Source: a virus (lineage: Duplodnaviria; Caudoviricetes). From it: DNA of 64,000 nt. Below the pieces are notes generated by a model, which saw nothing but the letters and a program-made list of their open reading frames with translations, ran no database searches and was not told where the DNA came from. The stretch lies in the IMG/VR virus record IMGVR_UViG_3300029305_006500; one strand, 5' to 3'. A program made the position numbers and the translations under genes. Positions 2,085 to 27,688 of this stretch are shown piece after piece (within the stretch, counting starts at the first letter, position 1; each line of letters starts with the position of its first letter).

Positions 2085-2228
2085 AGGCGGTAAGCCGACG
2101 ATACAGAAAAGATACCAGAACGATAGTGAATTTACGATACATAATTTTAAGATACCTTACAAGATACCTTAATAATTAAATATGTAAAATAGCTGTCGTC
2201 TGATAAATTTCAGGCGACTTTTCTTTTT
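2085..2228 (+). ncRNA. Candidate small RNA (or iteron array) with six A(A/C)GATAC repeats
   Basis: No ORF; lies between a promoter motif and a terminator; repeats at 2098, 2109, 2120, 2134, 2149, 2161. Confidence 0.45.
2195..2228 (+). terminator. Intrinsic terminator
   Basis: GTCGTCTGA/TCAGGCGAC stem followed by TTTTCTTTTT. Confidence 0.8.
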
Positions 2229-2292
2229 GTTCAAAATTTAAGTTTTTGATCATTGTATATTAAAATGAATATTATTTTAAGGAGTTTCTATA

Positions 2293-2814
2293 ATGATTAA
2301 ATTTTTTATTGAACCTGGTTATGAGGTAAAGCATCCTGTAAGAGACTTTGGAAATGCTGGAGTGGATGTATTTATTCCTTATGCTACTAAGGATTTTATT
2401 GAAGCTTTCAATGCAAAGAATGATGCTAAAAATGCGTATCTTACCTATGCACAGGATGCAATTATAATTGAGCCTCATGGCCGAGTAAATATTCCATCTG
2501 GCCTTAGGGCTAGAATTAGTCCTAATGTAGCGTTGGAAGCTCATAATAAGAGCGGAGTAGCTACTAAGTATGGCCTTGTATTTGGTGCATCTACTGTTGA
2601 TGCTAATTATCAAGGGATTATTCATGTTTCGTTGATTAATACCACAGCAGAAGCAGTAACTTTGCCTTTGGGAATGAAAGCAGTTCAGTTTATTCCTAGG
2701 CTTATTGATATGTCTTCTATTGAAGTAGACACTTCTGGAAATGTAGAAGACTTTTACAAAAATTTTGAATTTTCTAACCGCGGTGATGGAGCATTTGGTA
2801 GCACCGGAGTTTAA
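2293..2814 (+). CDS. dut: Trimeric dUTPase
   Basis: AGVD, KSG, VDANYQG and RGDGAFGSTG motifs. Confidence 0.92.
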   Translation: MIKFFIEPGYEVKHPVRDFGNAGVDVFIPYATKDFIEAFNAKNDAKNAYLTYAQDAIIIEPHGRVNIPSGLRARISPNVALEAHNKSGVATKYGLVFGASTVDANYQGIIHVSLINTTAEAVTLPLGMKAVQFIPRLIDMSSIEVDTSGNVEDFYKNFEFSNRGDGAFGSTGV

Positions 2815-2846
2815 GTGAAATACAAACAAAAGGAAGAGGTATAGCT

Positions 2847-3533
2847 ATGATTGAAAATTGCAGATACCGTGAAAAGTGTAATGGACGAGACTGCAATAAA
2901 GATTTTTGCATGAAAAAGTGTCGTTTAGATTGTTTGTATGATAACTCACTTTTATCAGAGACACAACGTCAGCATAAAGTTTTGTATTGTGATGCAGATG
3001 GTACTGATAGAATAGAATTTACAAAATTATCTCAAATCGAAGGAGCTATTCTTAAGTTTGTAGATGAGGGACATAATCTTTACCTGCATTCATACACTCC
3101 AGGTAATGGCAAAACAACTTTTGCCATTAGATTGCTTATGGCTTATTTTAATAAAATTTGGTCCAAATCCAATTTGACTTGTCAGGGCTTATTTGTGAGT
3201 GTACCTAGGTATTTGTTAGCTTTAAAAGAAAATATAGCTGGGCACAGTGAATATGCAGATTTTGTAAATAAAAATATTATGACTGCTGATTTAGTTGTAT
3301 TTGATGATATAGCCGCAAAAATTGGGTCTGATTTTGAATTAAATCATCTTCTCAATATTATTAATACTAGAATGGATTTAGGAAAAAGTAATATTTTTAC
3401 TTCTAATTTGGGTAAAAAAGAACTTACTACTGCGTTAGGTGAACGACTAGCAAGTAGAATTGGAAATAAGTCTATTGATATTGAGCTTCATGGTGCAGAT
3501 AAAAGAGCTTTAAGTTTGACAGGAGGTAATTAA
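2847..3533 (+). CDS. DnaC/IstB-like helicase loader ATPase
   Basis: N-terminal Cys cluster, PGNGKT Walker A, VFDD Walker B, TSN, SRI. Confidence 0.85.
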   Translation: MIENCRYREKCNGRDCNKDFCMKKCRLDCLYDNSLLSETQRQHKVLYCDADGTDRIEFTKLSQIEGAILKFVDEGHNLYLHSYTPGNGKTTFAIRLLMAYFNKIWSKSNLTCQGLFVSVPRYLLALKENIAGHSEYADFVNKNIMTADLVVFDDIAAKIGSDFELNHLLNIINTRMDLGKSNIFTSNLGKKELTTALGERLASRIGNKSIDIELHGADKRALSLTGGN

Positions 3534-4861
3534 TGACTACACAGTTTCAAATTTTAAATAAAATCTTGCAAACTGGTGATTATTCTTTAGTTTTGCTTAA
3601 TAACTTAAATGAAGAATATTTTCCCGGGTATTCTTCAGAATTTAAGTTTATTAAGAACCATTTTGAAAAATTTGGTTCAGTACCAGACCGTCTTACTTTT
3701 CTTAATACTTTTCCTGATTTTGATATTAAGGACGTAAATGAGCCTGATTCTTATTTAATTGAACAAGTTAATAAGGATTATAATGCTCAGTATATTGCTA
3801 AACAATTTAATATCCTTAAAAAATTTATTGAAGAAGATAAAATTGACGATGCAGTAGCATATTTAGTTAATGCTGCAAATAATATTCATCAAAATGCTTC
3901 TATGACCTGCACAGATCTTTTCCAAGATACTAGTCGTTATGATAAGTACGTTGAAAGAGTCAATAGTAGAGATAAATTTTTTATTAAAACTGGTTTTGAT
4001 GAACTTGATGCTATTATTGGTGGTATTGACGTAAAAGAAGAAAATATGGTGATTGCTGCACGTACTGGTAAAGGAAAGTCTTGGACACTTTTGAGAATTG
4101 CGGTAGAAGCTGCTAGACAAGGTTTTACAGTAGGACTTTATTCAGGTGAAATGTCTGCTGATAAGGTAGGTTATCGTGTTGATACTCTTTTAGGTCATAT
4201 TGATAATAAAGCAATTACTCGAGGCTCAGGAAATTATGATCCTTCAGTCGGTCTAGCATACAAGCAATATATAGATAACTTACCTACTGCGCTTCCCGGA
4301 ACTATAAAAGTACTTACTCCAAATGATATTAATGGCCCAGCTACTGTTGGAGCTTTACGTACTTTTGTAGAAAAAGAAAATATTCAAATTTTGCTTATCG
4401 ATCAGTATTCCTTGCTTGAAGACCAACATCATGCAAAAGTTATGCATGAAAAGGTAGCTAATATCTCAAAAGATATTAAAAATCTACAGGTTATGAAACA
4501 GATTCCAATCGTGTCGGTCTCTCAGATGAATAGAACAAAAAATGAGGATGGAGAGCAAGATACTACTCAAATTGGCTTATCTGATAGAATTGGTCAGGAT
4601 GCCACTTGTATTATTATGCTAGACAGAGATGTTACTTACAGCGACCCTGAAAAAAGAGTTGTTTCAGCTGATAAGCTTGTCCTTAATTTAGTAAAGTCTA
4701 GAGACGGTGGTGAGGGTAAATTAGTTTATGATGCTGATTTTAATACTGGTAGATTTACTTTTCTTAATCCTAATCTAACTGAGGCTCAATCTGAAGCAAT
4801 GGAAACTTATTATGAGGAAGATGAAGGCTCTTATGATCCTTCTGTAGCTGCTCCATGGTAA
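3533..4861 (+). CDS. dnaB: DnaB-like replicative helicase
   Basis: ARTGKGKS, SGEM, IDQ, SQMNR, IGQDA, KSRDG. Confidence 0.92.
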   Translation: MTTQFQILNKILQTGDYSLVLLNNLNEEYFPGYSSEFKFIKNHFEKFGSVPDRLTFLNTFPDFDIKDVNEPDSYLIEQVNKDYNAQYIAKQFNILKKFIEEDKIDDAVAYLVNAANNIHQNASMTCTDLFQDTSRYDKYVERVNSRDKFFIKTGFDELDAIIGGIDVKEENMVIAARTGKGKSWTLLRIAVEAARQGFTVGLYSGEMSADKVGYRVDTLLGHIDNKAITRGSGNYDPSVGLAYKQYIDNLPTALPGTIKVLTPNDINGPATVGALRTFVEKENIQILLIDQYSLLEDQHHAKVMHEKVANISKDIKNLQVMKQIPIVSVSQMNRTKNEDGEQDTTQIGLSDRIGQDATCIIMLDRDVTYSDPEKRVVSADKLVLNLVKSRDGGEGKLVYDADFNTGRFTFLNPNLTEAQSEAMETYYEEDEGSYDPSVAAPW

Positions 4862-5842: not shown

Positions 5843-5851
5843 TTGTATAAT
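5843..5851 (+). promoter_or_regulatory. Early/middle promoter motif TTGTATAAT
   Basis: Same motif at 11812, 14553, 18639, 21155, with variants at 2253 and 42470; followed by a GTGAC-GGAA-GTCAC hairpin. Confidence 0.65.
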
Positions 5852-6972: not shown

Positions 6973-8799
6973 ATGGATATTGGACTTTTCGGAACTGACT
7001 TTGATATTGATATTACAAAAACAAAGTCAGACGTAAAACAGTTACTTAAAAAGCTTAATCCTGAGTTTACAGAACCAGGTGCTCAAAATACTGAAAAGAT
7101 CTTAAAATCAAAAAAGCTTTCCATTCAAGAACGCCTTGAGATAATTAATGATAAAGTCATCAAGATTCTCGGAAAGCAACGACATAATACAGTTGTAATT
7201 CGAAGTCTTGATGACTTCATTGCTTATATAAATAAAGCTATTCAAAATGGCGTTATTGCAGTGGACACCGAGACGAATAATAGTTTGGATCCTGTTACTT
7301 GTAAACTAATGGGTCTCTGCTTATATACTCCAGGCGAAAGACAAGCCTATATTCCTATTAATCATGTAGATTGGCAAACTGAAGAACTACTTGCAAATCA
7401 GCTTACTGAGGAAGATTGTAGACAACAGCTTCAAAGAATTAAAGATAATAATACTTTTGTTATTATGCATAATGGTAAGTTCGATTATGAAGTTATTAAG
7501 ACCACTTGTCATATCGATTTGCCGCCCAATTGGGATACAATGGTAGCTGCAAGACTTTTAGATGAAAATGAATTAGCTGGTTTGAAATATCAGTATACTA
7601 CAAAAATTGACCCGTCTCAGTCTAAATATGATATTGAAAGCTTATTTGAAAATGTGCAGTATGCTTTTGTAAATCCGGAGATCTTTGCTCTTTATGCTGC
7701 TACTGACTCAATGATGACCTATAAGCTTTATTTGTGGCAGCTACCTTTTATGACTTCCCCAGAGCTAGAAAGACTTTATTGGGTATTCTTGAATATTGAA
7801 ATGCCTATTGTAGTTGTAACCGCAGAAATGGAGCTTAAGGGAGTAAGCATTAATACTAAGTTTGGTAAAAAGCTAAAAATAAAATATAAGCAGCAATTAG
7901 CAGAGATAGATACTGAAATAGAAAAAGAGCTTGATAAATTAAAGCCTTTAATTTCTGAATGGCGAGAAGATGAAACTCGTGGTGGGGCATATTCTAAGAT
8001 GTATATGCCAAAGAAATCTAAAAAGTCACAGGAGGAGTTAGAAGCTATTTATACCGCTATTGAACCTGATCAGATTCCTTCAGGAAAAAAAGATAGAACT
8101 GGTAAAGATATTTTAGTGAAAAACCCTAATGCCGGTAGAAGATATAAATTTGGTAAAAAAGCTTCTGAAATGTTGAGTGACCCTATTAATCTTGCATCTC
8201 CTGCACAGCTTGCTATTCTATTCTATGATATTTTGAATTGCCCTGCTGTAAGTAAAAAAGCACCAAGAGGTACAGGTGAAAGCGAATTAGAAGCTATTGC
8301 AGAAAAGCGACCAGATTTACAAATTTGTAAGCTTATTTTGAAACGTAGGGGCATTGTAAAACTTATTACTACTTATATAGATGTCATTCCTGATTTAGTG
8401 AAACATTGGCCAGATGGTAGAATTCGTTTTCATCTCAATGCTCAGGGTACAGATACTGGTAGATATAGTTCCGGAGGAAAACTTAAATTTTTTGAGAATG
8501 GTGAACCAGTAGTAGTTTCTGGTATTAATATTCAAAATATTCCTTCACATAATAAGGAAATTAGAATGCTATTTCAGGGAGATACAAAATATCATGAGGT
8601 GGAGTCTTCTAATCAATGGTTTGATGTCCCTGAAACTGATGAAGTTGAAGTGCTTGATGCTGAAGGTAGATTAGTGTGGAAATTTGTATCAGAACTTGAA
8701 ATTGGTGACGAGGTTAATTTAGAAACTGAAAATGGTATTGGAACTTGGCATATTCAGGCCATTGAAAAACAAGATAAAGTATATCGTATAAGATTTTGA
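6973..8799 (+). CDS. polA: DNA polymerase A, N-terminal part (3'-5' exonuclease, thumb, pre-motif A) with intein-like C-terminal extension
   Basis: VDTET, HNGKFD, YAATD exonuclease motifs; TDTGRYSS, NIQNIP, EIRMLF. Confidence 0.9.
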   Translation: MDIGLFGTDFDIDITKTKSDVKQLLKKLNPEFTEPGAQNTEKILKSKKLSIQERLEIINDKVIKILGKQRHNTVVIRSLDDFIAYINKAIQNGVIAVDTETNNSLDPVTCKLMGLCLYTPGERQAYIPINHVDWQTEELLANQLTEEDCRQQLQRIKDNNTFVIMHNGKFDYEVIKTTCHIDLPPNWDTMVAARLLDENELAGLKYQYTTKIDPSQSKYDIESLFENVQYAFVNPEIFALYAATDSMMTYKLYLWQLPFMTSPELERLYWVFLNIEMPIVVVTAEMELKGVSINTKFGKKLKIKYKQQLAEIDTEIEKELDKLKPLISEWREDETRGGAYSKMYMPKKSKKSQEELEAIYTAIEPDQIPSGKKDRTGKDILVKNPNAGRRYKFGKKASEMLSDPINLASPAQLAILFYDILNCPAVSKKAPRGTGESELEAIAEKRPDLQICKLILKRRGIVKLITTYIDVIPDLVKHWPDGRIRFHLNAQGTDTGRYSSGGKLKFFENGEPVVVSGINIQNIPSHNKEIRMLFQGDTKYHEVESSNQWFDVPETDEVEVLDAEGRLVWKFVSELEIGDEVNLETENGIGTWHIQAIEKQDKVYRIRF

Positions 8800-8811
8800 A
8801 AGAAGGTGATT

Positions 8812-8868
8812 ATGATGAAGTTAAAGACACGAACTAGATATATGCTAGTCGGCTCTGACTTCTCCTAG
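8812..8868 (+). CDS. polA: 18-codon PolA segment carrying the motif A catalytic Asp (MMKLKTRTRYMLVGSDFS*)
   Basis: AAGGTGAT RBS; LVGSDFS is the first half of motif A and continues as AQEPR after 5 extra nt. Confidence 0.8.
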   Translation: MMKLKTRTRYMLVGSDFS

Positions 8869-8870
8869 CT

Positions 8871-17722: not shown

Positions 17723-18646
17723 ATGGGAGATAGATATTCTTACTCAAAAATTGATGTCTATAAATCCTGTCCTTGGCATTTTAAACTTAGGTACATAGAC
17801 GGTAACTTTATAGATACCGGAGGGCTTGCTACCGAACTTGGTACTTTAATACATGAAACCGAAGAAGCTATAGCTAATAATATCAAGGCAGGCTTACATA
17901 TAAATTATGTACAGCTTAAAAATAATATTATTTTAAATATGCTACAGCTAGAACATAAATACACTGATAGTTTTCATACTTTGGATAAGTCCAATCGTAG
18001 TTGTAAAGATAAGATTTTTGGTTACTTAGAATCAGGTATTTATAGACTTGAAAAATTTTTACTTGCTAATAATCATATTGAAGTTTTAGATACTGAAAAA
18101 GAATTTGAATTTACCTTACCTGGCACAGAAACAGTTTTTCATGGTTTTATTGACCGCATTCTTTATAATAAGCGTCAAATGAAATATATCGTTCAGGATA
18201 TAAAAACTTATGCTGTTCCAGTAGAAAAGAAAAATTTAGATGTACCTCTTCAATTTGTAATTTATGCCCATGCAATGAAAGAGCTTTATGGAATTAGCAC
18301 AGAGGAAATAGACTGTGCTTATGATTTACCCTTCTGTGATCTTACGCAGGCTGCAGGAACCACTGATTTTATAGATCGTGGTACTGAAAAAGTTATTGAA
18401 CTTTTAAATAATATTAATAAAAAAGAATTTGCACCAAAACCTTCTCCTCTCTGTCATTGGTGTGAATTTTGCCCTACAAATCCAAATCAGCCTGAGGCTG
18501 GTAAAAACTTATGTCCATATCATTCTTTGTGGACGCGTGAAAATAAGACCCACCAGGTTGCTTCAAGCTGGGCTGGTCTTGATCAGCATGAGCTTGTATT
18601 GTTCGAGTATATCAAATGTCAAAATCCAAGCTCAAATGTTGTATAA
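17723..18646 (+). CDS. PD-(D/E)xK exonuclease (RecB/AddB/Cas4-like, Cys cluster)
   Basis: SYSKI...CP, GTLIH, GFIDR, DIKT, QF..Y, CHWCEFC. Confidence 0.85.
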   Translation: MGDRYSYSKIDVYKSCPWHFKLRYIDGNFIDTGGLATELGTLIHETEEAIANNIKAGLHINYVQLKNNIILNMLQLEHKYTDSFHTLDKSNRSCKDKIFGYLESGIYRLEKFLLANNHIEVLDTEKEFEFTLPGTETVFHGFIDRILYNKRQMKYIVQDIKTYAVPVEKKNLDVPLQFVIYAHAMKELYGISTEEIDCAYDLPFCDLTQAAGTTDFIDRGTEKVIELLNNINKKEFAPKPSPLCHWCEFCPTNPNQPEAGKNLCPYHSLWTRENKTHQVASSWAGLDQHELVLFEYIKCQNPSSNVV

Positions 18647-18665
18647 TAAAATATAAGGAGATATT

Positions 18666-19472
18666 ATGCAGCAAAATAAACTTTATGATGTTATCATTCT
18701 TGGAGCCTCTAGCCATGGATTAGCTTTAGCTGAAATGATAGAAGATAGCTGTTCTACTGCCCTAGTTAGCTCTAATTTTACTCATAAGACTAAAAAACAA
18801 AGTCTTGATTCTACAGATTTAATACAAGGAACTGCAGTCTACCTATCTTATATGCGAGGTTTATTTGTACTAAGCTTAGAAAATCGAGAAAAAGTAGTGG
18901 GTAAAAATTTAGTTATTGCTACAGGCACTAAACCAAAAAAGAGCGCTTTAAGAAATCAAAATATTAGGTACAATATCAGCGAACTAACTGAGAAGAATAA
19001 AATAGCACAGGCAGTAGTTTACGGTCATGATGAATTGGCAGTACAATACTCAATTAGTCTTGCAAAACTCTTTAAATATGTATATTTGTGTAGTGATACT
19101 TTTGAGTTGGATTGTAGCAAAAAAGTTCAGAAGCAGTTTAATGAGCTAGTAAATGTTGTCCACTTGCCTGGGTGTACAGTGCTATCTTGTAAAAATGATG
19201 CTAAAGGACAGCTAGTAGAAATAACATTGGATACCTATGATACTATTAAAACTTCTACTTTAGTTATGTCAATTGGAAGGCTACCCGACTTACCTTCATT
19301 TTTAAATCAATATATTAAGAAAGATCCAGATGGTTATGCTATAACTAAAGAGTACTCAGAAAGTACTAGCATTCCTAAAGTATATGCTATTGGTGGGCTA
19401 CTTAAAAAATCTACTAAAAAAAGTTTAACTACTCTTGCAATTAAGTTAAAGGAGGAGACTGTAAATGCTTGA
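18666..19472 (+). CDS. Degenerate thioredoxin reductase (TrxB)-fold protein
   Basis: YDVIILG, VIATG, SIGRLP, DGY..T, TSIPKVYAIG; GxGxxG motifs eroded and CxxC absent. Confidence 0.7.
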   Translation: MQQNKLYDVIILGASSHGLALAEMIEDSCSTALVSSNFTHKTKKQSLDSTDLIQGTAVYLSYMRGLFVLSLENREKVVGKNLVIATGTKPKKSALRNQNIRYNISELTEKNKIAQAVVYGHDELAVQYSISLAKLFKYVYLCSDTFELDCSKKVQKQFNELVNVVHLPGCTVLSCKNDAKGQLVEITLDTYDTIKTSTLVMSIGRLPDLPSFLNQYIKKDPDGYAITKEYSESTSIPKVYAIGGLLKKSTKKSLTTLAIKLKEETVNA

Positions 19473-20040
19473 CGAAAATCAAATCTATCAAAACAAGATG
19501 AAATTTATGGAGCTTGCTACGAAGCTTAACATAGATTTGACTGACCTTTATAAATATCTAGATAGCGTGGAATACTTTACAAAACCTGCTACTACTCAAT
19601 ATTTTAGAGCTTATTCTGGTGGGCTTTGTCAGTATGCTTTGGATCTTGCTTTTGAATTAGCAAGCATGGTAAATGCATATTGTCCTGGTAAGTATTCAAC
19701 AGAAGATATTCTTAAAGTAGCATTATTTAAAGACCTATATAGAGCTGAACTTTATGAGAGTTATTTTAAAAACGTCAAGAACGACCAGACTGGACAGTGG
19801 GAAATGCAGCCAGCTTTTAGGTACCGTGAGCAACGTCCTACTTTTGGCGATATAGGTTTTAGCTCGTATATGATTGCTAAACGTTTTATTTCATTTACGG
19901 ATGAGCAAATTGAAGCTATTACTCAAGCGTCTGCTAAAAGTGATTATGCTGGAGATATTCATGACATAATGCGTAGGTATCCATTAGTAACACTTACAAA
20001 AATGGCTGATATTGCTACAACGTACTTAGGTGAAGCATAA
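19465..20040 (+). CDS. Degenerate HD-domain protein
   Basis: PA...AYSGGL, ALFKDL (HD becomes KD), NVKN..TGQWE, MAD; His ligands replaced. Confidence 0.7.
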   Translation: MLDENQIYQNKMKFMELATKLNIDLTDLYKYLDSVEYFTKPATTQYFRAYSGGLCQYALDLAFELASMVNAYCPGKYSTEDILKVALFKDLYRAELYESYFKNVKNDQTGQWEMQPAFRYREQRPTFGDIGFSSYMIAKRFISFTDEQIEAITQASAKSDYAGDIHDIMRRYPLVTLTKMADIATTYLGEA

Positions 20041-20048
20041 GTTAACTA

Positions 20049-20085
20049 GAGCGACGGCTATACAAAGTATTCGTCGCTCATTTTT
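20049..20085 (+). terminator. Intrinsic terminator
   Basis: GAGCGACG/CGTCGCTC stem plus T tract. Confidence 0.75.
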
Positions 20086-20105: not shown

Positions 20106-21137
20106 ATGCGTATACTTATATTTACAGATAATCATTTTAGTGAGAAATCTTCTATTGTTACTAAGTATGGCACAAATTTTACAATAAGATTAGAAAATCA
20201 AATTCGATCTTTAAATTGGGTAGAGCGCACAGCTCATGATAAAGAATGTGATTTTGTGATATGCTTGGGAGATTTTTTTGATCATGCACATTTGACTGAC
20301 CAAGAATTGACTGCTTTAGATCAGATTCAGTGGAACTCTTTAGATCATTACTTTTTGGTAGGTAATCATGAAAGTGAAGAAAACGACCTACAATATAGCT
20401 CTACAATGGCTTTAGCTGGATTACATAGATATATTGTAAGTGAACCTGTTATTAAACAAATTGATACTAATACAGAGCTTGCCTTTCTTCCTTATATTGT
20501 AGAAAGTAATCGCAGAGCTATCACGGATTACTTTGAGCCGATGAATAAAAAAACTAGAATTTTGCTATCGCATAATGATTTATTAGGAATTCAAATGGGG
20601 CCCATAGTTTCTAGAACTGGTTTTTCAGTTGATGAACTAGAAAGTATTGCTTCTATTGTCTTTAATGGGCATCTTCATAATGGGCAAGCTATTACAGATA
20701 AAATTATTAATCTTGGTAATTTAACAGGAGCTAATTTTAGTGAAGATGCTTTAAGATACTCCCATAGAGTTGTTATCTTAGATACAGAAACTCTTGAATA
20801 TGAGTATATTGAAAATCCTTTTGCATTTAATTTTTATAAGTTAGATATTAATGAGACAGCTGATATTGCAATGTTAACAAATTTAAAACAAAATGCAGTT
20901 GTGTCTATAAAATGTAAAGATTTTTTGCTACAAGAAGTTCGGGAAACCTTAGAAGGACTAGAAAATATTATTGAGTCTAGAGTTATTATTACAAAAGATT
21001 ACGTGGAGAATGCTAATGAAATAGCAGATATTTCTTCCCTGATGGTAGATCAATGTGCGAAGTTTGCAGAATGCTGCCGAGCAAAATTAGATAATAATGC
21101 TATTCTTGAAGCTGAATTGGCTGAAATACTAAAATAG
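20106..21137 (+). CDS. SbcD/Mre11 (gp47-like) nuclease
   Basis: DNH, GDFFD, GNHE, SH, GHLH metallophosphoesterase motifs. Confidence 0.88.
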   Translation: MRILIFTDNHFSEKSSIVTKYGTNFTIRLENQIRSLNWVERTAHDKECDFVICLGDFFDHAHLTDQELTALDQIQWNSLDHYFLVGNHESEENDLQYSSTMALAGLHRYIVSEPVIKQIDTNTELAFLPYIVESNRRAITDYFEPMNKKTRILLSHNDLLGIQMGPIVSRTGFSVDELESIASIVFNGHLHNGQAITDKIINLGNLTGANFSEDALRYSHRVVILDTETLEYEYIENPFAFNFYKLDINETADIAMLTNLKQNAVVSIKCKDFLLQEVRETLEGLENIIESRVIITKDYVENANEIADISSLMVDQCAKFAECCRAKLDNNAILEAELAEILK

Positions 21138-21188
21138 CAATTATATAGGATTTATTGTATAATATAAATAGGAAGAGGATAATTTTTA

Positions 21189-21587
21189 GTGTTAAAATTT
21201 AAGAAAAACTACAAAAAATTGTATAAAAGCTACAAAAAACTACTAAAAGACCTTAACTTCTCAAATATTAATTCTTGGCAAGACCCAACTAAATATTTTA
21301 TTGCTTATTTAAAAATGATACGGGATTATCGTTTACTTGCTACTTCTGATATAACTAAAATTGAAGAAAACGATGCGGGGCTTGCAGCTTTGATAACTGC
21401 AATTTCGGAATATGAGCTAAGTCAATCCTGTTTTTTTAAATATTATAAAGTAGAAAATGGAATAGTTTCTAGAATAGTAGATACAGACGAAGAAACTACC
21501 TTAAAAAAGTATAGCCAAGAAAAATTATTCCATTGGGAAGCTTTTTGGAATATTGTTAAAATGAGTATAGAGGATTGGGTGGTATAA
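21189..21587 (+). CDS. Hypothetical protein inserted between sbcD- and sbcC-like genes
   Basis: GTG start, GAGG RBS, preceded by TTGTATAAT (21155). Confidence 0.6.
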   Translation: MLKFKKNYKKLYKSYKKLLKDLNFSNINSWQDPTKYFIAYLKMIRDYRLLATSDITKIEENDAGLAALITAISEYELSQSCFFKYYKVENGIVSRIVDTDEETTLKKYSQEKLFHWEAFWNIVKMSIEDWVV

Positions 21588-23461
21588 TGCTAAATTTTGA
21601 AAAACTAATTTTACATAATTTTGGAAGCTATGGCCATGCAGAATTAGATTTACGGAATAAAGGTTTCTGTCTAGTCTCTGGAAAAAATGCTTATAAAAAA
21701 GATAACGCTATTTCCAATGGTTCCGGAAAAAGTTTTTTGTGGAATGCTATTTGTTTTGTTTTTACAGGTGAAACTTTAACTGGTTTACACTCAAATCTGA
21801 AAAATATAAATATTACAGATGATAATACTTGTTACGTAGAATTATTTTTTAGCGAAGGTTTAGATTCCTATCATTTAACCAGAATTGCTAATCCTAGATC
21901 AGATTTAAAAGTCATTAAAAATGATATAGATGTTAGTGGCAAGGGAGTACGAGAGTCTGAAAAGAAGCTAACTGAATTACTTCCAACATTAACTAAAAAT
22001 CTTATTACTTCTACTATTATTATCGGACAAGGTATGCCAAATAAATTTTCTTCTTTTAGTCCAAGTGGACGTAAAGAGTTGCTTGAAAAACTTACAAGAG
22101 CTGACTTTATGATTGAAGATATAAAACAACGTGTTTTAGACAGACAGCTAAAGTTAAGTAGTGATATTAGGGCTAATGAAGATACTTTATTAACGAATCA
22201 ATCCCAGCTTTCTATTATCGAATCAGAACTTAAGTCTAAAACTTCGGAATTTGAAAATCTAATTCAACCTAATTTTGAAGTTGAACTTGCTCAAATTAAT
22301 TTAAAGCATAATGAGCTTTCCTTGTTAATTAATCAAAACAATGAAGTTATAGTCTCTCTAGAAACAGAATATCAAAAGGCTACTGAAGCTTTATTAACTT
22401 TAACTGAGGAAAAATCTAAAGTAGTTACAGAAGAGCAAGAAGCTTATACAAAAGCTATTTTAGAAACTCAACAACGTCAATTAACAATTAAAGCTGAATT
22501 AGATACCGTTATCCGAGAAATTAATAAAATGTCTTCTATAAAAGATACTTGCCCAACTTGTGGACAGGCTATTCCAGGCGCAATAAAACCAGATACTTCA
22601 GCTCTTGAACAAAAACAATTGAATTTGAAAGAACAACTTTCTGAAGTGACTGTAAAGCTTAGCTCTCAAAATACTAAACATCAAGAGTATCAAAAAGTTA
22701 TTGCGAAGCAATTTGATGCAGATTTAATAGCTAAAAAGCAGCTTTGCGAAACATTACGCGCTCAATTAGCTGGTTTAAAGAATACTGTCTCTACTGCCTC
22801 TGCGCAGCAAACAGAGCTACAGACTCAAGCAAATAAATTAAAGTATGAGAGCGAGAATTGGGATAAACGAAGACAGGCTTTATTACAAAGAATAGCTGAT
22901 CTTGAAGCTTCTGTACAAAAATTTAAAAATTCTATCACATTAATAGAACAAGATAAATTAGTACTTGAGGAACATTTTAAAGTAGTTAAAAAAATGGATA
23001 CACTTATTAAGCGTGATTTTCGAGGTTATTTGCTTTCTAATATTATTTCATATATTAATGTTAAAGCAAAGGAATATAGTGAGATAGTATTTGGAACTAA
23101 AGACCTTGAAGTTTACCTTGAAGGTAATGATTTAAATATTTCCTATTGTGGAAAAATGTTTGATAATTTATCCGGTGGCGAAAAGCAACGAGTTGATCTT
23201 ATTCTTCAATTTACTATCCGTAATATGCTTACTGCTTACTTAAATTTTAATTCTAATATTCTTGTCCTAGATGAAATTACAGATTTCTTAGATAAAAAAA
23301 GCTGTGGAGCGGTTTTAGATCTTATTGCTAGAGAACTTAATACTATCGAATCTGTTTTTATCGTTTCCCACCATGCTTCAGAGCTCGCGCTGCCTATCGA
23401 CTCGGAAGTTATTATAAAAAAGAATGAGGCAGGAATAAGTGAGATTATTTCAGGAGCTTAA
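21587..23461 (+). CDS. SbcC/Rad50 (gp46-like) ATPase
   Basis: NGSGKS, coiled coils, CPTC hook, LSGGE, LDE, SH. Confidence 0.92.
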   Translation: MLNFEKLILHNFGSYGHAELDLRNKGFCLVSGKNAYKKDNAISNGSGKSFLWNAICFVFTGETLTGLHSNLKNINITDDNTCYVELFFSEGLDSYHLTRIANPRSDLKVIKNDIDVSGKGVRESEKKLTELLPTLTKNLITSTIIIGQGMPNKFSSFSPSGRKELLEKLTRADFMIEDIKQRVLDRQLKLSSDIRANEDTLLTNQSQLSIIESELKSKTSEFENLIQPNFEVELAQINLKHNELSLLINQNNEVIVSLETEYQKATEALLTLTEEKSKVVTEEQEAYTKAILETQQRQLTIKAELDTVIREINKMSSIKDTCPTCGQAIPGAIKPDTSALEQKQLNLKEQLSEVTVKLSSQNTKHQEYQKVIAKQFDADLIAKKQLCETLRAQLAGLKNTVSTASAQQTELQTQANKLKYESENWDKRRQALLQRIADLEASVQKFKNSITLIEQDKLVLEEHFKVVKKMDTLIKRDFRGYLLSNIISYINVKAKEYSEIVFGTKDLEVYLEGNDLNISYCGKMFDNLSGGEKQRVDLILQFTIRNMLTAYLNFNSNILVLDEITDFLDKKSCGAVLDLIARELNTIESVFIVSHHASELALPIDSEVIIKKNEAGISEIISGA

Positions 23462-26908: not shown

Positions 26909-27688
26909 ATGATTGAAATTATTACTGACCTTGAAAAGCTAACTAACCCAGCAGCTCCTCTAGAATTTCTAACTGAAAAGGGACCAGATGGAACAGAAGG
27001 TAATGAAATTATTACAAAGCTTCTTGATGTTTTAAATGAGCATCCAGATATTGTAGCATTATCAGCACCTCAAATTGGAATAGATCGAAGAATTTTTTGT
27101 ATTAGATTTGATGATCAAATTAAAGTATTTATTGACCCTATTATTACAAAAAAAAGCAATTTTATTATCGCACCTGAAACCTGTGCTTCTATGCCAGGAA
27201 AGGAAATTTTAATTAGCCGGCCAGAAGAACTTACAGTAGTTTATTATACCTCTGCTTATAAATATGAGGAAAATAAGCTTTTAGGGGGTGCCGCTAGAAT
27301 TTTTGATCAGCAATGTCAGTTACTAGATGGTATTACCCCGGCGGAGCTTGGTTTAGTTTCAGATGTGGCAACTGATGGTTCTTTGGCTGACCTTACAGAA
27401 AAGGAAATTATTGAGCTAACTGATTTTTATAAACAGTATGTAAAGGTTAAGCTAGAAGGTCTTACTAAACAGATTGAGGCAGATCCAGAATTAGCTGAAC
27501 GATATAAAAATCTTAGTTTTTCTGAGAAGGTAATTAATGGAAAAGCAGCTTTTGTTGTAGAAGATGGTACAAAACGTAAAGCCGCTGTTAATAAAACTGT
27601 TGCATTATCAATGAAGGGCTTAGCTGATTCAGAAAAAGCTACTAGACAGGCAAATTTAAAACAATTTTTAAACAGGAAGGGAAAATAA
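26909..27688 (+). CDS. Peptide deformylase-like protein with degenerate active site
   Basis: LSAPQIG, ETCAS (for EGCLS), QQCQL (for HExxH). Confidence 0.8.
   Translation: MIEIITDLEKLTNPAAPLEFLTEKGPDGTEGNEIITKLLDVLNEHPDIVALSAPQIGIDRRIFCIRFDDQIKVFIDPIITKKSNFIIAPETCASMPGKEILISRPEELTVVYYTSAYKYEENKLLGGAARIFDQQCQLLDGITPAELGLVSDVATDGSLADLTEKEIIELTDFYKQYVKVKLEGLTKQIEADPELAERYKNLSFSEKVINGKAAFVVEDGTKRKAAVNKTVALSMKGLADSEKATRQANLKQFLNRKGK

Follow-up and report, generated by a model that had tools for sequence, protein, structure and literature searches.

A pseudo-thioredoxin reductase and a pseudo-HD protein kept in the replication cluster of large gut and rumen phages

The locus and its transcription signals

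The DNA analyzed here (the window) is a 64-kb stretch of a 67 kb virus record. It carries a replication set comprising DnaB, primase, PolA, clamp, RecU, RecA, the DnaX/HolB/HolA clamp loader, SbcCD and topoisomerase I. Head and tail genes of T4-like type come next (structural genes were named by inspection). The PolA gene at 6973-10172 (+) is split into two ORFs of 608 and 424 aa. Between the clamp-loader/PD-(D/E)XK nuclease genes and SbcCD lie the two genes studied here, ORF1 and ORF2, whose reading frames overlap by 8 nt; they and their catalytically dead homologs are referred to as TrxB* and HD*, respectively. The main features are as follows, with the names of the upstream RecA, DnaX and resolvase taken from relatives and from sequence likeness.

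12814-18646, plus strand: RecA, a Holliday-junction-resolvase-like ORF, a conserved 122-aa ORF, DnaX/HolB/HolA and a PD-(D/E)XK nuclease (upstream context)
18640-18649, plus strand: promoter-like motif TGTATAATAA of the -10 type that lacks a clear -35 and overlaps the PD-(D/E)XK nuclease stop codon
18656-18660, plus strand: Shine-Dalgarno sequence AGGAG of ORF1
18666-19472, plus strand: ORF1, pseudo-thioredoxin reductase, 268 aa, basic; TrxB fold with no CxxC, eroded FAD/NAD(P)H motifs and a deletion of about 27 aa
19465-20040, plus strand: ORF2, pseudo-HD protein, 191 aa; YhaM-like HD domain without the OB fold, with a conserved beta-hairpin (residues 97-120)
20049-20085, plus strand: intrinsic-terminator-like hairpin and T-run (hairpin itself 20049-20079, z -2.73)
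20106-23461, plus strand: SbcD and SbcC (downstream context)
26909-27688, plus strand: peptide deformylase fold (Pfam 6e-18) with HExxH changed to DQQCQL, a third pseudoenzyme, 7 kb downstream of ORF1/ORF2

The original prediction placed a promoter (18639) and a terminator (20049) around the two genes, and both signals were found to recur in relatives far above controls. The TGTATAATAA motif has 11 copies in the window versus 2.8 expected, and was present 5' of the TrxB/HD slot in 22 of 30 relatives versus 17 of 1482 coding controls. Similarly, a terminator-like hairpin was identified 3' of the HD gene in 30 of 51 relatives versus none of 240 controls. An AGGAG-like ribosome site precedes the TrxB slot in many relatives, and an internal promoter motif between TrxB and HD could be observed in only 1 of 50 loci. 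It should be noted that a sigma-70 scan of the window did not list the motif at 18640, nor did a terminator scan of the window list the hairpin at 20049; judged by conservation, both signals are real. Because the same motif also sits before five other same-strand genes, TrxB*/HD* is an ordinary member of the cluster's set of transcription units. The description 'self-contained operon' therefore holds for transcription in the window only, the unit being one of several with the same promoter in the replication cluster. TGTAT(A/T)ATA repeats, located at 5844, 11813, 14554, 18640, 21156 and 42471 (+) before replication genes and a terminase-like gene, likely represent a phage promoter class without a -35 box.

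Relatives of the window reside on contigs of up to 200-273 kb. Their sample source, where given (few records), was gut, and their bins name Lachnospiraceae, Bacteroidales and Bacilli as possible hosts. The source clade comprises large phages (200-270 kb) of the gut and rumen; no cultured close relative was found among GenBank phages.

Catalytic losses and purifying selection

ORF1 matched Pyr_redox_2 in Pfam (E 1.2e-15), and comparison of its predicted model (pLDDT 93.7) with TrxR gave a Z of 25.2 and an rmsd of 2.7 over 259 residues, with the two-domain FAD/NAD(P)H Rossmann fold present. It had been claimed earlier that ORF1 follows thioredoxin reductase colinearly with loss of CxxC, both dinucleotide motifs and GD, and every one of these changes could be observed: compared with an intact ortholog, GAGPAG reads GASSHG, CATCD reads NISEL, GSGNTG reads GHDELA and GD reads GG. 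An additional change, absent from the original prediction, is a deletion following residue 37, in which about 27 residues covering the GG-x-I...ENxPG flavin segment are lost. With regard to NADPH binding, GHDELA occupies the place of GxGxxA/G, and HRRxxxR is absent, as it also is in intact phage orthologs.

CxxC is missing from all 97 full-length dead TrxB sequences. The second Gly of the FAD motif GxGxxG is replaced by S or T, the terminal GD is variable and S35 takes the place of the ribose-binding Asp; no dead TrxB retains the phosphate-binding glycines or this Asp. Pocket positions 120-125 and 244 vary across the clade, structural glycines are kept and new conserved residues (S15, S35, K135, Y138 and Y191) have appeared. 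Net charge per 100 aa was +3.6 for dead TrxB, 0 for intact phage TrxB and -2.7 for the outgroup, a comparison that counts related sequences as independent. As divergence is even over the domains (pN 0.24-0.25), no functional surface stands out. Two further ideas were rejected: that the NADPH domain alone is important, which was raised by a truncated relative (L057) and received no support from domain-wise pN, and that a new Cys/His metal site (C142, C150, H166 and C170) is present in ORF1, of whose residues C142 alone is shared throughout the dead clade. When automatic annotation labels dead TrxB genes 'thioredoxin reductase', they end up miscounted as auxiliary metabolic genes.

ORF2 matched the profile of phrog_28876, the phage Dp-1 gp21 family (8e-19), while single-sequence searches of PDB and Pfam gave no match for it. 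The closest solved structure to its predicted model (pLDDT 88.7) was YhaM (PDB 9H3F), with a Z of 11.5, an rmsd of 3.7 and 162 aligned residues; the next match scored 6.4. Identity was 9% in the structural alignment, the profile E was 4.6e-4 and Foldseek alone gave a weak match (E 0.14). Only YhaM residues 103-284 are aligned, the N-terminal OB fold being absent from ORF2. The two-metal ligands of YhaM are H163, H193, D194, H250, H251 and D274 (PMC12107432), and their ORF2 counterparts are Y57, K89, D90, Q154, A155 and D182, with Q154-A155 and D182 placed via the phage family alignment. In that alignment, the conserved His positions of the phage HD family are occupied in ORF2 by F47, Y57, K89, I130 and A155, and D90 and D182 are retained, which bears out the claim that every metal-binding His of the phage-family HD domain is substituted.

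Among 150 distant representatives, His was the commonest residue at positions 47 (90), 57 (117), 89 (114) and 130 (73); at position 89, it was found in none of 120 close ORF2 homologs. Some HD* members of the clade retain His57, and pocket positions 43, 44, 47, 57, 130 and 155 vary. A recoded His codon was considered and rejected: the replaced codons all differ, so the loss is not a recoding artifact, and neighboring enzymes keep their His. Hairpin residues N103, K105, G110 and W112 are common to dead, eroded and intact HD groups, which suggests that a function needing the hairpin, and not the metal site, predates the loss. ORF2 is acidic overall (net charge about -7), with about +1 in the hairpin.

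The original prediction proposed a dN/dS check across homologs. Purifying selection was observed on both ORFs, with values far below 1 in every pair (pairwise Nei-Gojobori): 0.07-0.19 for dead TrxB, with one pair at 0.31, and 0.02-0.16 for dead HD in closer pairs, with two distant pairs, both saturated, at 0.18 and 0.29. Most dS values in these pairs are close to saturation; in the least saturated pair, dN/dS was 0.070 for TrxB* and 0.047 for HD*, and most neighboring replication genes were at 0.02-0.09. TrxB* and HD* are working genes kept by purifying selection. It had been suggested that both proteins have a non-catalytic role, and this appears likely because both are catalytically stripped yet under purifying selection. 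Retention of catalytic residues in close homologs together with relaxed selection here had been named as evidence against that role; for ORF1, syntenic orthologs do keep every catalytic motif, but relaxed selection was not seen.

A similar pattern was found in the peptide deformylase homolog, in which motifs 1 and 2 are eroded. The HExxH His is missing from all 25 distinct copies, and dN/dS values of 0.055-0.17 indicate purifying selection. This protein is a third core pseudoenzyme of the clade.

Histories of the two losses

The gene order PD-(D/E)XK, TrxB, HD, SbcD is fixed in 23 of 23 viral loci (L010-L032; 14 distinct), and TrxB and HD are adjacent in nearly all loci, often overlapping or 2-15 nt apart. 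Several arrangements are informative about the order of events. A dead HD gene lies next to a fully intact TrxB in L020, L023, L072, L086, L087 and L089, with the motifs GAGxAG, CxxC, GSGNTG and GD read in L020, L023 and L072. HD* occurs without any TrxB in L084 and L033, beside a 115-aa TrxB remnant in L057, and separated from TrxB by an inserted gene in L073; L088 has an intact TrxB with no HD* after it. Since HD* adjoins intact TrxB, no TrxB or a remnant, the TrxB and HD losses were separate events.

A search with an intact copy revealed a phage-type group of 57 intact TrxB sequences, 7 of which were read in their loci. The dead TrxBs form a single long-stemmed clade (SH-aLRT 100) nested within these intact phage TrxBs (96, 95). 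This tree suggests that TrxB catalysis was lost once, later than that of HD, from the intact phage group, with which the shared deletion agrees, although the long branches call for caution. The intact group (L020 9083-9988 and 56 related proteins) lacks HRRxxxR and reads VYLCD; because this NADPH motif is missing, these enzymes may use NADH or another donor. In addition, a bS21 gene is located between the PD-(D/E)XK nuclease gene and the TrxB slot in L017, L020, L057, L072, L084, L086, L087 and L089 and is absent from the window. L084 has bS21 and an unrelated ORF in place of TrxB, and its frames at 2093-4150 are open only with TGA read as Trp (code 4).

In the HD tree, intact members lead to a wide, partly eroded grade and then to the source clade (support 1.0), in which the HD histidine is never present. 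The HD protein eroded stepwise and had already died in the common ancestor of the phage clade. In more distant phages, its gene keeps company with RecA, DnaX, HolB, HolA and SbcCD, TrxB being absent from the neighborhood; L097 carries an intact copy, L096 a partly eroded one and L033 a dead one, and in phage Dp-1 an intact HD gene directly follows the clamp loader. The conserved 122-aa ORF of the window (14580-14948, +) directly follows the HD gene in L033, L096 and L097 and is a candidate partner of the HD protein; that it might be a split-off OB fold was also considered, and it gave no Atlas match. An intact HD paralog is present elsewhere in 3 of 5 near-complete relatives, and the 2 without it keep the dead copy. 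In the 3 relatives, this paralog lies directly 3' of a Thg1-like gene (named by inspection) and has a metallophosphoesterase-like gene close by (L090 640-2849, L092 703-2073). A fast concatenated tree had weak basal support, and hence no claim is made on allele swapping.

We also found a possible lead to why TrxB became dispensable. Class III ribonucleotide reductase (RNR) was present in 5 of 5 near-complete genomes, with no class I/II match in any. NrdD types were defined according to a previous study, in which the SCCR type was reported to use thioredoxin (PMC4493059). The intact-TrxB near-complete genome (n=1) has an SCCR-type NrdD adjoining a CxxC redoxin, and MGCR-type NrdD was found in 4 of 5 dead-TrxB genomes read, the CCR type being kept in 1. 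No redoxin match could be identified in three near-complete MGCR-type dead-TrxB genomes, and no PF00085 thioredoxin in five relatives. Two class III RNR types were also seen within the clade (L099 and L100 versus L101-L103 and L105): CCR with an adjacent small redoxin-like ORF, and MGCR. The active TrxB may have fed a thioredoxin-type anaerobic RNR and become dispensable after a switch to the formate type or to host TrxB. An NrdD switch as the trigger of TrxB loss, resting on one intact genome, is a lead only, and additional viral scans found no further intact-TrxB genomes for this comparison.

Possible roles and comparison with known systems

That ORF1 and ORF2 are dead, selected and independent is, in our view, highly probable. 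On this basis, the reading we prefer, with a probability of roughly 0.5, is that they are two separately exapted pseudoenzymes that share one transcript and are now non-catalytic binding proteins. Different loss times and the working forms in related phages make separately repurposed binding proteins probable over one anti-immunity module. The HD protein descends from a YhaM-like phage enzyme that lies beside clamp-loader genes in distant phages. The ancestor of TrxB* was an active phage TrxB, a form that still occupies this slot in some relatives, and a flavin-domain deletion accompanied the loss of catalysis before the dead form spread. Each pseudoenzyme would now bind a macromolecule. HD* would most likely be a non-cutting accessory of the replication/recombination machinery that binds its partner via the beta-hairpin (N103-x-K105, G110-x-W112), whereas the TrxB shell is probably flavin-free and would bind nucleic acid or an acidic protein through its newly basic surface. 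YhaM degrades ssDNA from the 3' end, and mutation of its HD motif strengthens ssDNA binding (PMC12107432). However, YhaM binds ssDNA via the OB fold, which is absent here, and HD* is acidic, so a protein partner would be at least as likely as DNA for HD*. The gene neighborhood suggests a role in replication/recombination, at the level of pathway only, and a binding role of this kind falls just short of an even chance. A broader proposal, which is doubtful at present, is that dead HD, TrxB and peptide deformylase are core subunits or regulators of the phage replication and expression machinery, with dead TrxB docking on dead HD or on the replisome in a role gained while it was still active. The survival of active, half-eroded and dead alleles at a single slot would make the enzyme-to-pseudoenzyme switch directly testable.

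Other explanations were also considered. The original prediction favored a paired module binding dinucleotides or immune nucleotides, which the separate losses, the varying pockets and the core rather than patchy distribution of the genes speak against. A related possibility is that one or both proteins act as a nucleotide sponge sequestering NAD(P), FAD, cyclic oligonucleotides or gcADPR. Nucleotide binders are the ancestors of both folds; in ORF1, G13, G18, A85-T86-G87 and G243 are retained and S15 and S35 are newly conserved, and K89-D90 and D182 of ORF2 are kept in close homologs. However, the former ligand pockets vary across the clade (HD positions 47, 57, 130 and 155; TrxB positions 120-125 and 244), which argues against a sponge, as do the phosphate-binding glycines and ribose-binding Asp lost from all dead TrxBs and the fixed, core character of the genes, which is unlike an accessory cassette. 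A sponge is therefore very unlikely. A changed rather than dead function, with ORF1 as a flavoenzyme that dispenses with CxxC, as the TrxR-like FNRs do, and ORF2 performing metal-free or one-metal chemistry, appears equally improbable. TrxR-like FNRs are active without CxxC (PMC8564101), these phages carry class III RNR, Cys142 is present in 97% of dead TrxBs and His57 persists in some HD* members. Unlike the FNRs, however, ORF1 has lost the FAD and NAD(P)H motifs, the flavin segment and GD, and no His ligand is left in the ORF2 of the window.

An unlikely alternative of a different kind is a decoy, in which dead TrxB binds thioredoxin/NrdH or poisons host TrxB, and dead HD poisons YhaM or the active phage HD paralog. 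It would fit the paralog in 3 of 5 near-complete relatives and the fact that YhaM acts on 3' ssDNA as a hexamer (PMC12107432), an activity whose blocking might benefit a phage that depends on recombination. Nevertheless, the 2 genomes without the paralog still keep dead HD, ORF2 and YhaM share only 9% identity in structural alignment, and the TrxB* deletion takes away a segment at the usual dimer interface. The TrxB helix that carries CxxC is near the place where thioredoxin docks, and this helix is not conserved in TrxB*. The adjacency of the two genes in nearly all loci, with one promoter and an internal motif in a single locus of 50, could also reflect an obligate two-protein module, that is, one complex in which HD binding kept TrxB after the loss of catalysis. 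Such a module is rather improbable, considering that HD* persists without TrxB (L084 and L033), beside a remnant (L057) or separated from it (L073), and that intact TrxB occurs without HD* after it (L088). Finally, a reading as decaying pseudogenes could draw on the faster divergence of TrxB* relative to HD*, on its loss or truncation in two relatives and on a dN/dS of 0.31 in one pair. This reading is hardly credible and is refuted by the selection data: every pair has a dN/dS well under 1. In addition, full-length dead TrxBs number 97 and HD homologs 417, and the promoter, ribosome site and terminator are all conserved.

No paper on a pseudo-TrxB or pseudo-YhaM family in phages was found in the open-access literature, and the TrxB* and HD* families are apparently undescribed. 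Several known systems nevertheless resemble them in part. ORF1 shares its two-domain fold over the whole chain with low-Mr TrxB (PDB 5MH4 and 7JYP) and with intact phage TrxB; it occupies the same genomic slot as the latter group, from which it is directly descended. It differs from low-Mr TrxB in the absence of CxxC, GxGxxG, GxGxxA/G, the ribose Asp and GD, in the deletion of about 27 aa, and in being basic, not acidic. TrxR-like FNRs likewise lack CxxC on a TrxR fold, but they are enzymes in which the FAD motif GxGxxG and the NAD(P)H motif GxGxxA/G are intact (PMC8564101), whereas ORF1 lacks these motifs and is derived from TrxB proper.

With YhaM/Cbf1 (PDB 9H3F), ORF2 shares the HD helical fold, the P-x-x-T...GL segment and the HD helix; it differs in having no OB fold and no H...HD...HH...D site, and its long beta-hairpin is a feature of the phage HD family. 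ORF2 is homologous over its full length to phrog_28876/Dp-1 gp21, including the N-x-K...G-x-W hairpin, and is a member of this family by descent that has been catalytically stripped. A position near clamp-loader genes is also common to ORF2 and the stand-alone HD proteins of phages.

Acb2, Tad1 and Tad2 are phage nucleotide sponges, non-catalytic proteins, as ORF1 and ORF2 are proposed to be, and no sequence or fold match to them was obtained in any ORF1/ORF2 search. Described phage sponges are small, patchily distributed accessory proteins, whereas TrxB* and HD* are core genes in which the old pockets are not conserved. A precedent in kind is that of the orthopoxviruses, large DNA viruses that have exapted inactivated enzymes, such as the processivity factor A20 from an NAD-dependent ligase (bioRxiv 10.1101/2022.11.22.517515), and likewise keep dead enzymes for non-enzymatic roles, replication included. 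The present case differs in concerning a bacteriophage and other folds, and in that active and half-eroded forms persist in the same slot. With active, intermediate and dead forms coexisting at one locus, these phages offer an unusually clean natural series from enzyme to binding protein.
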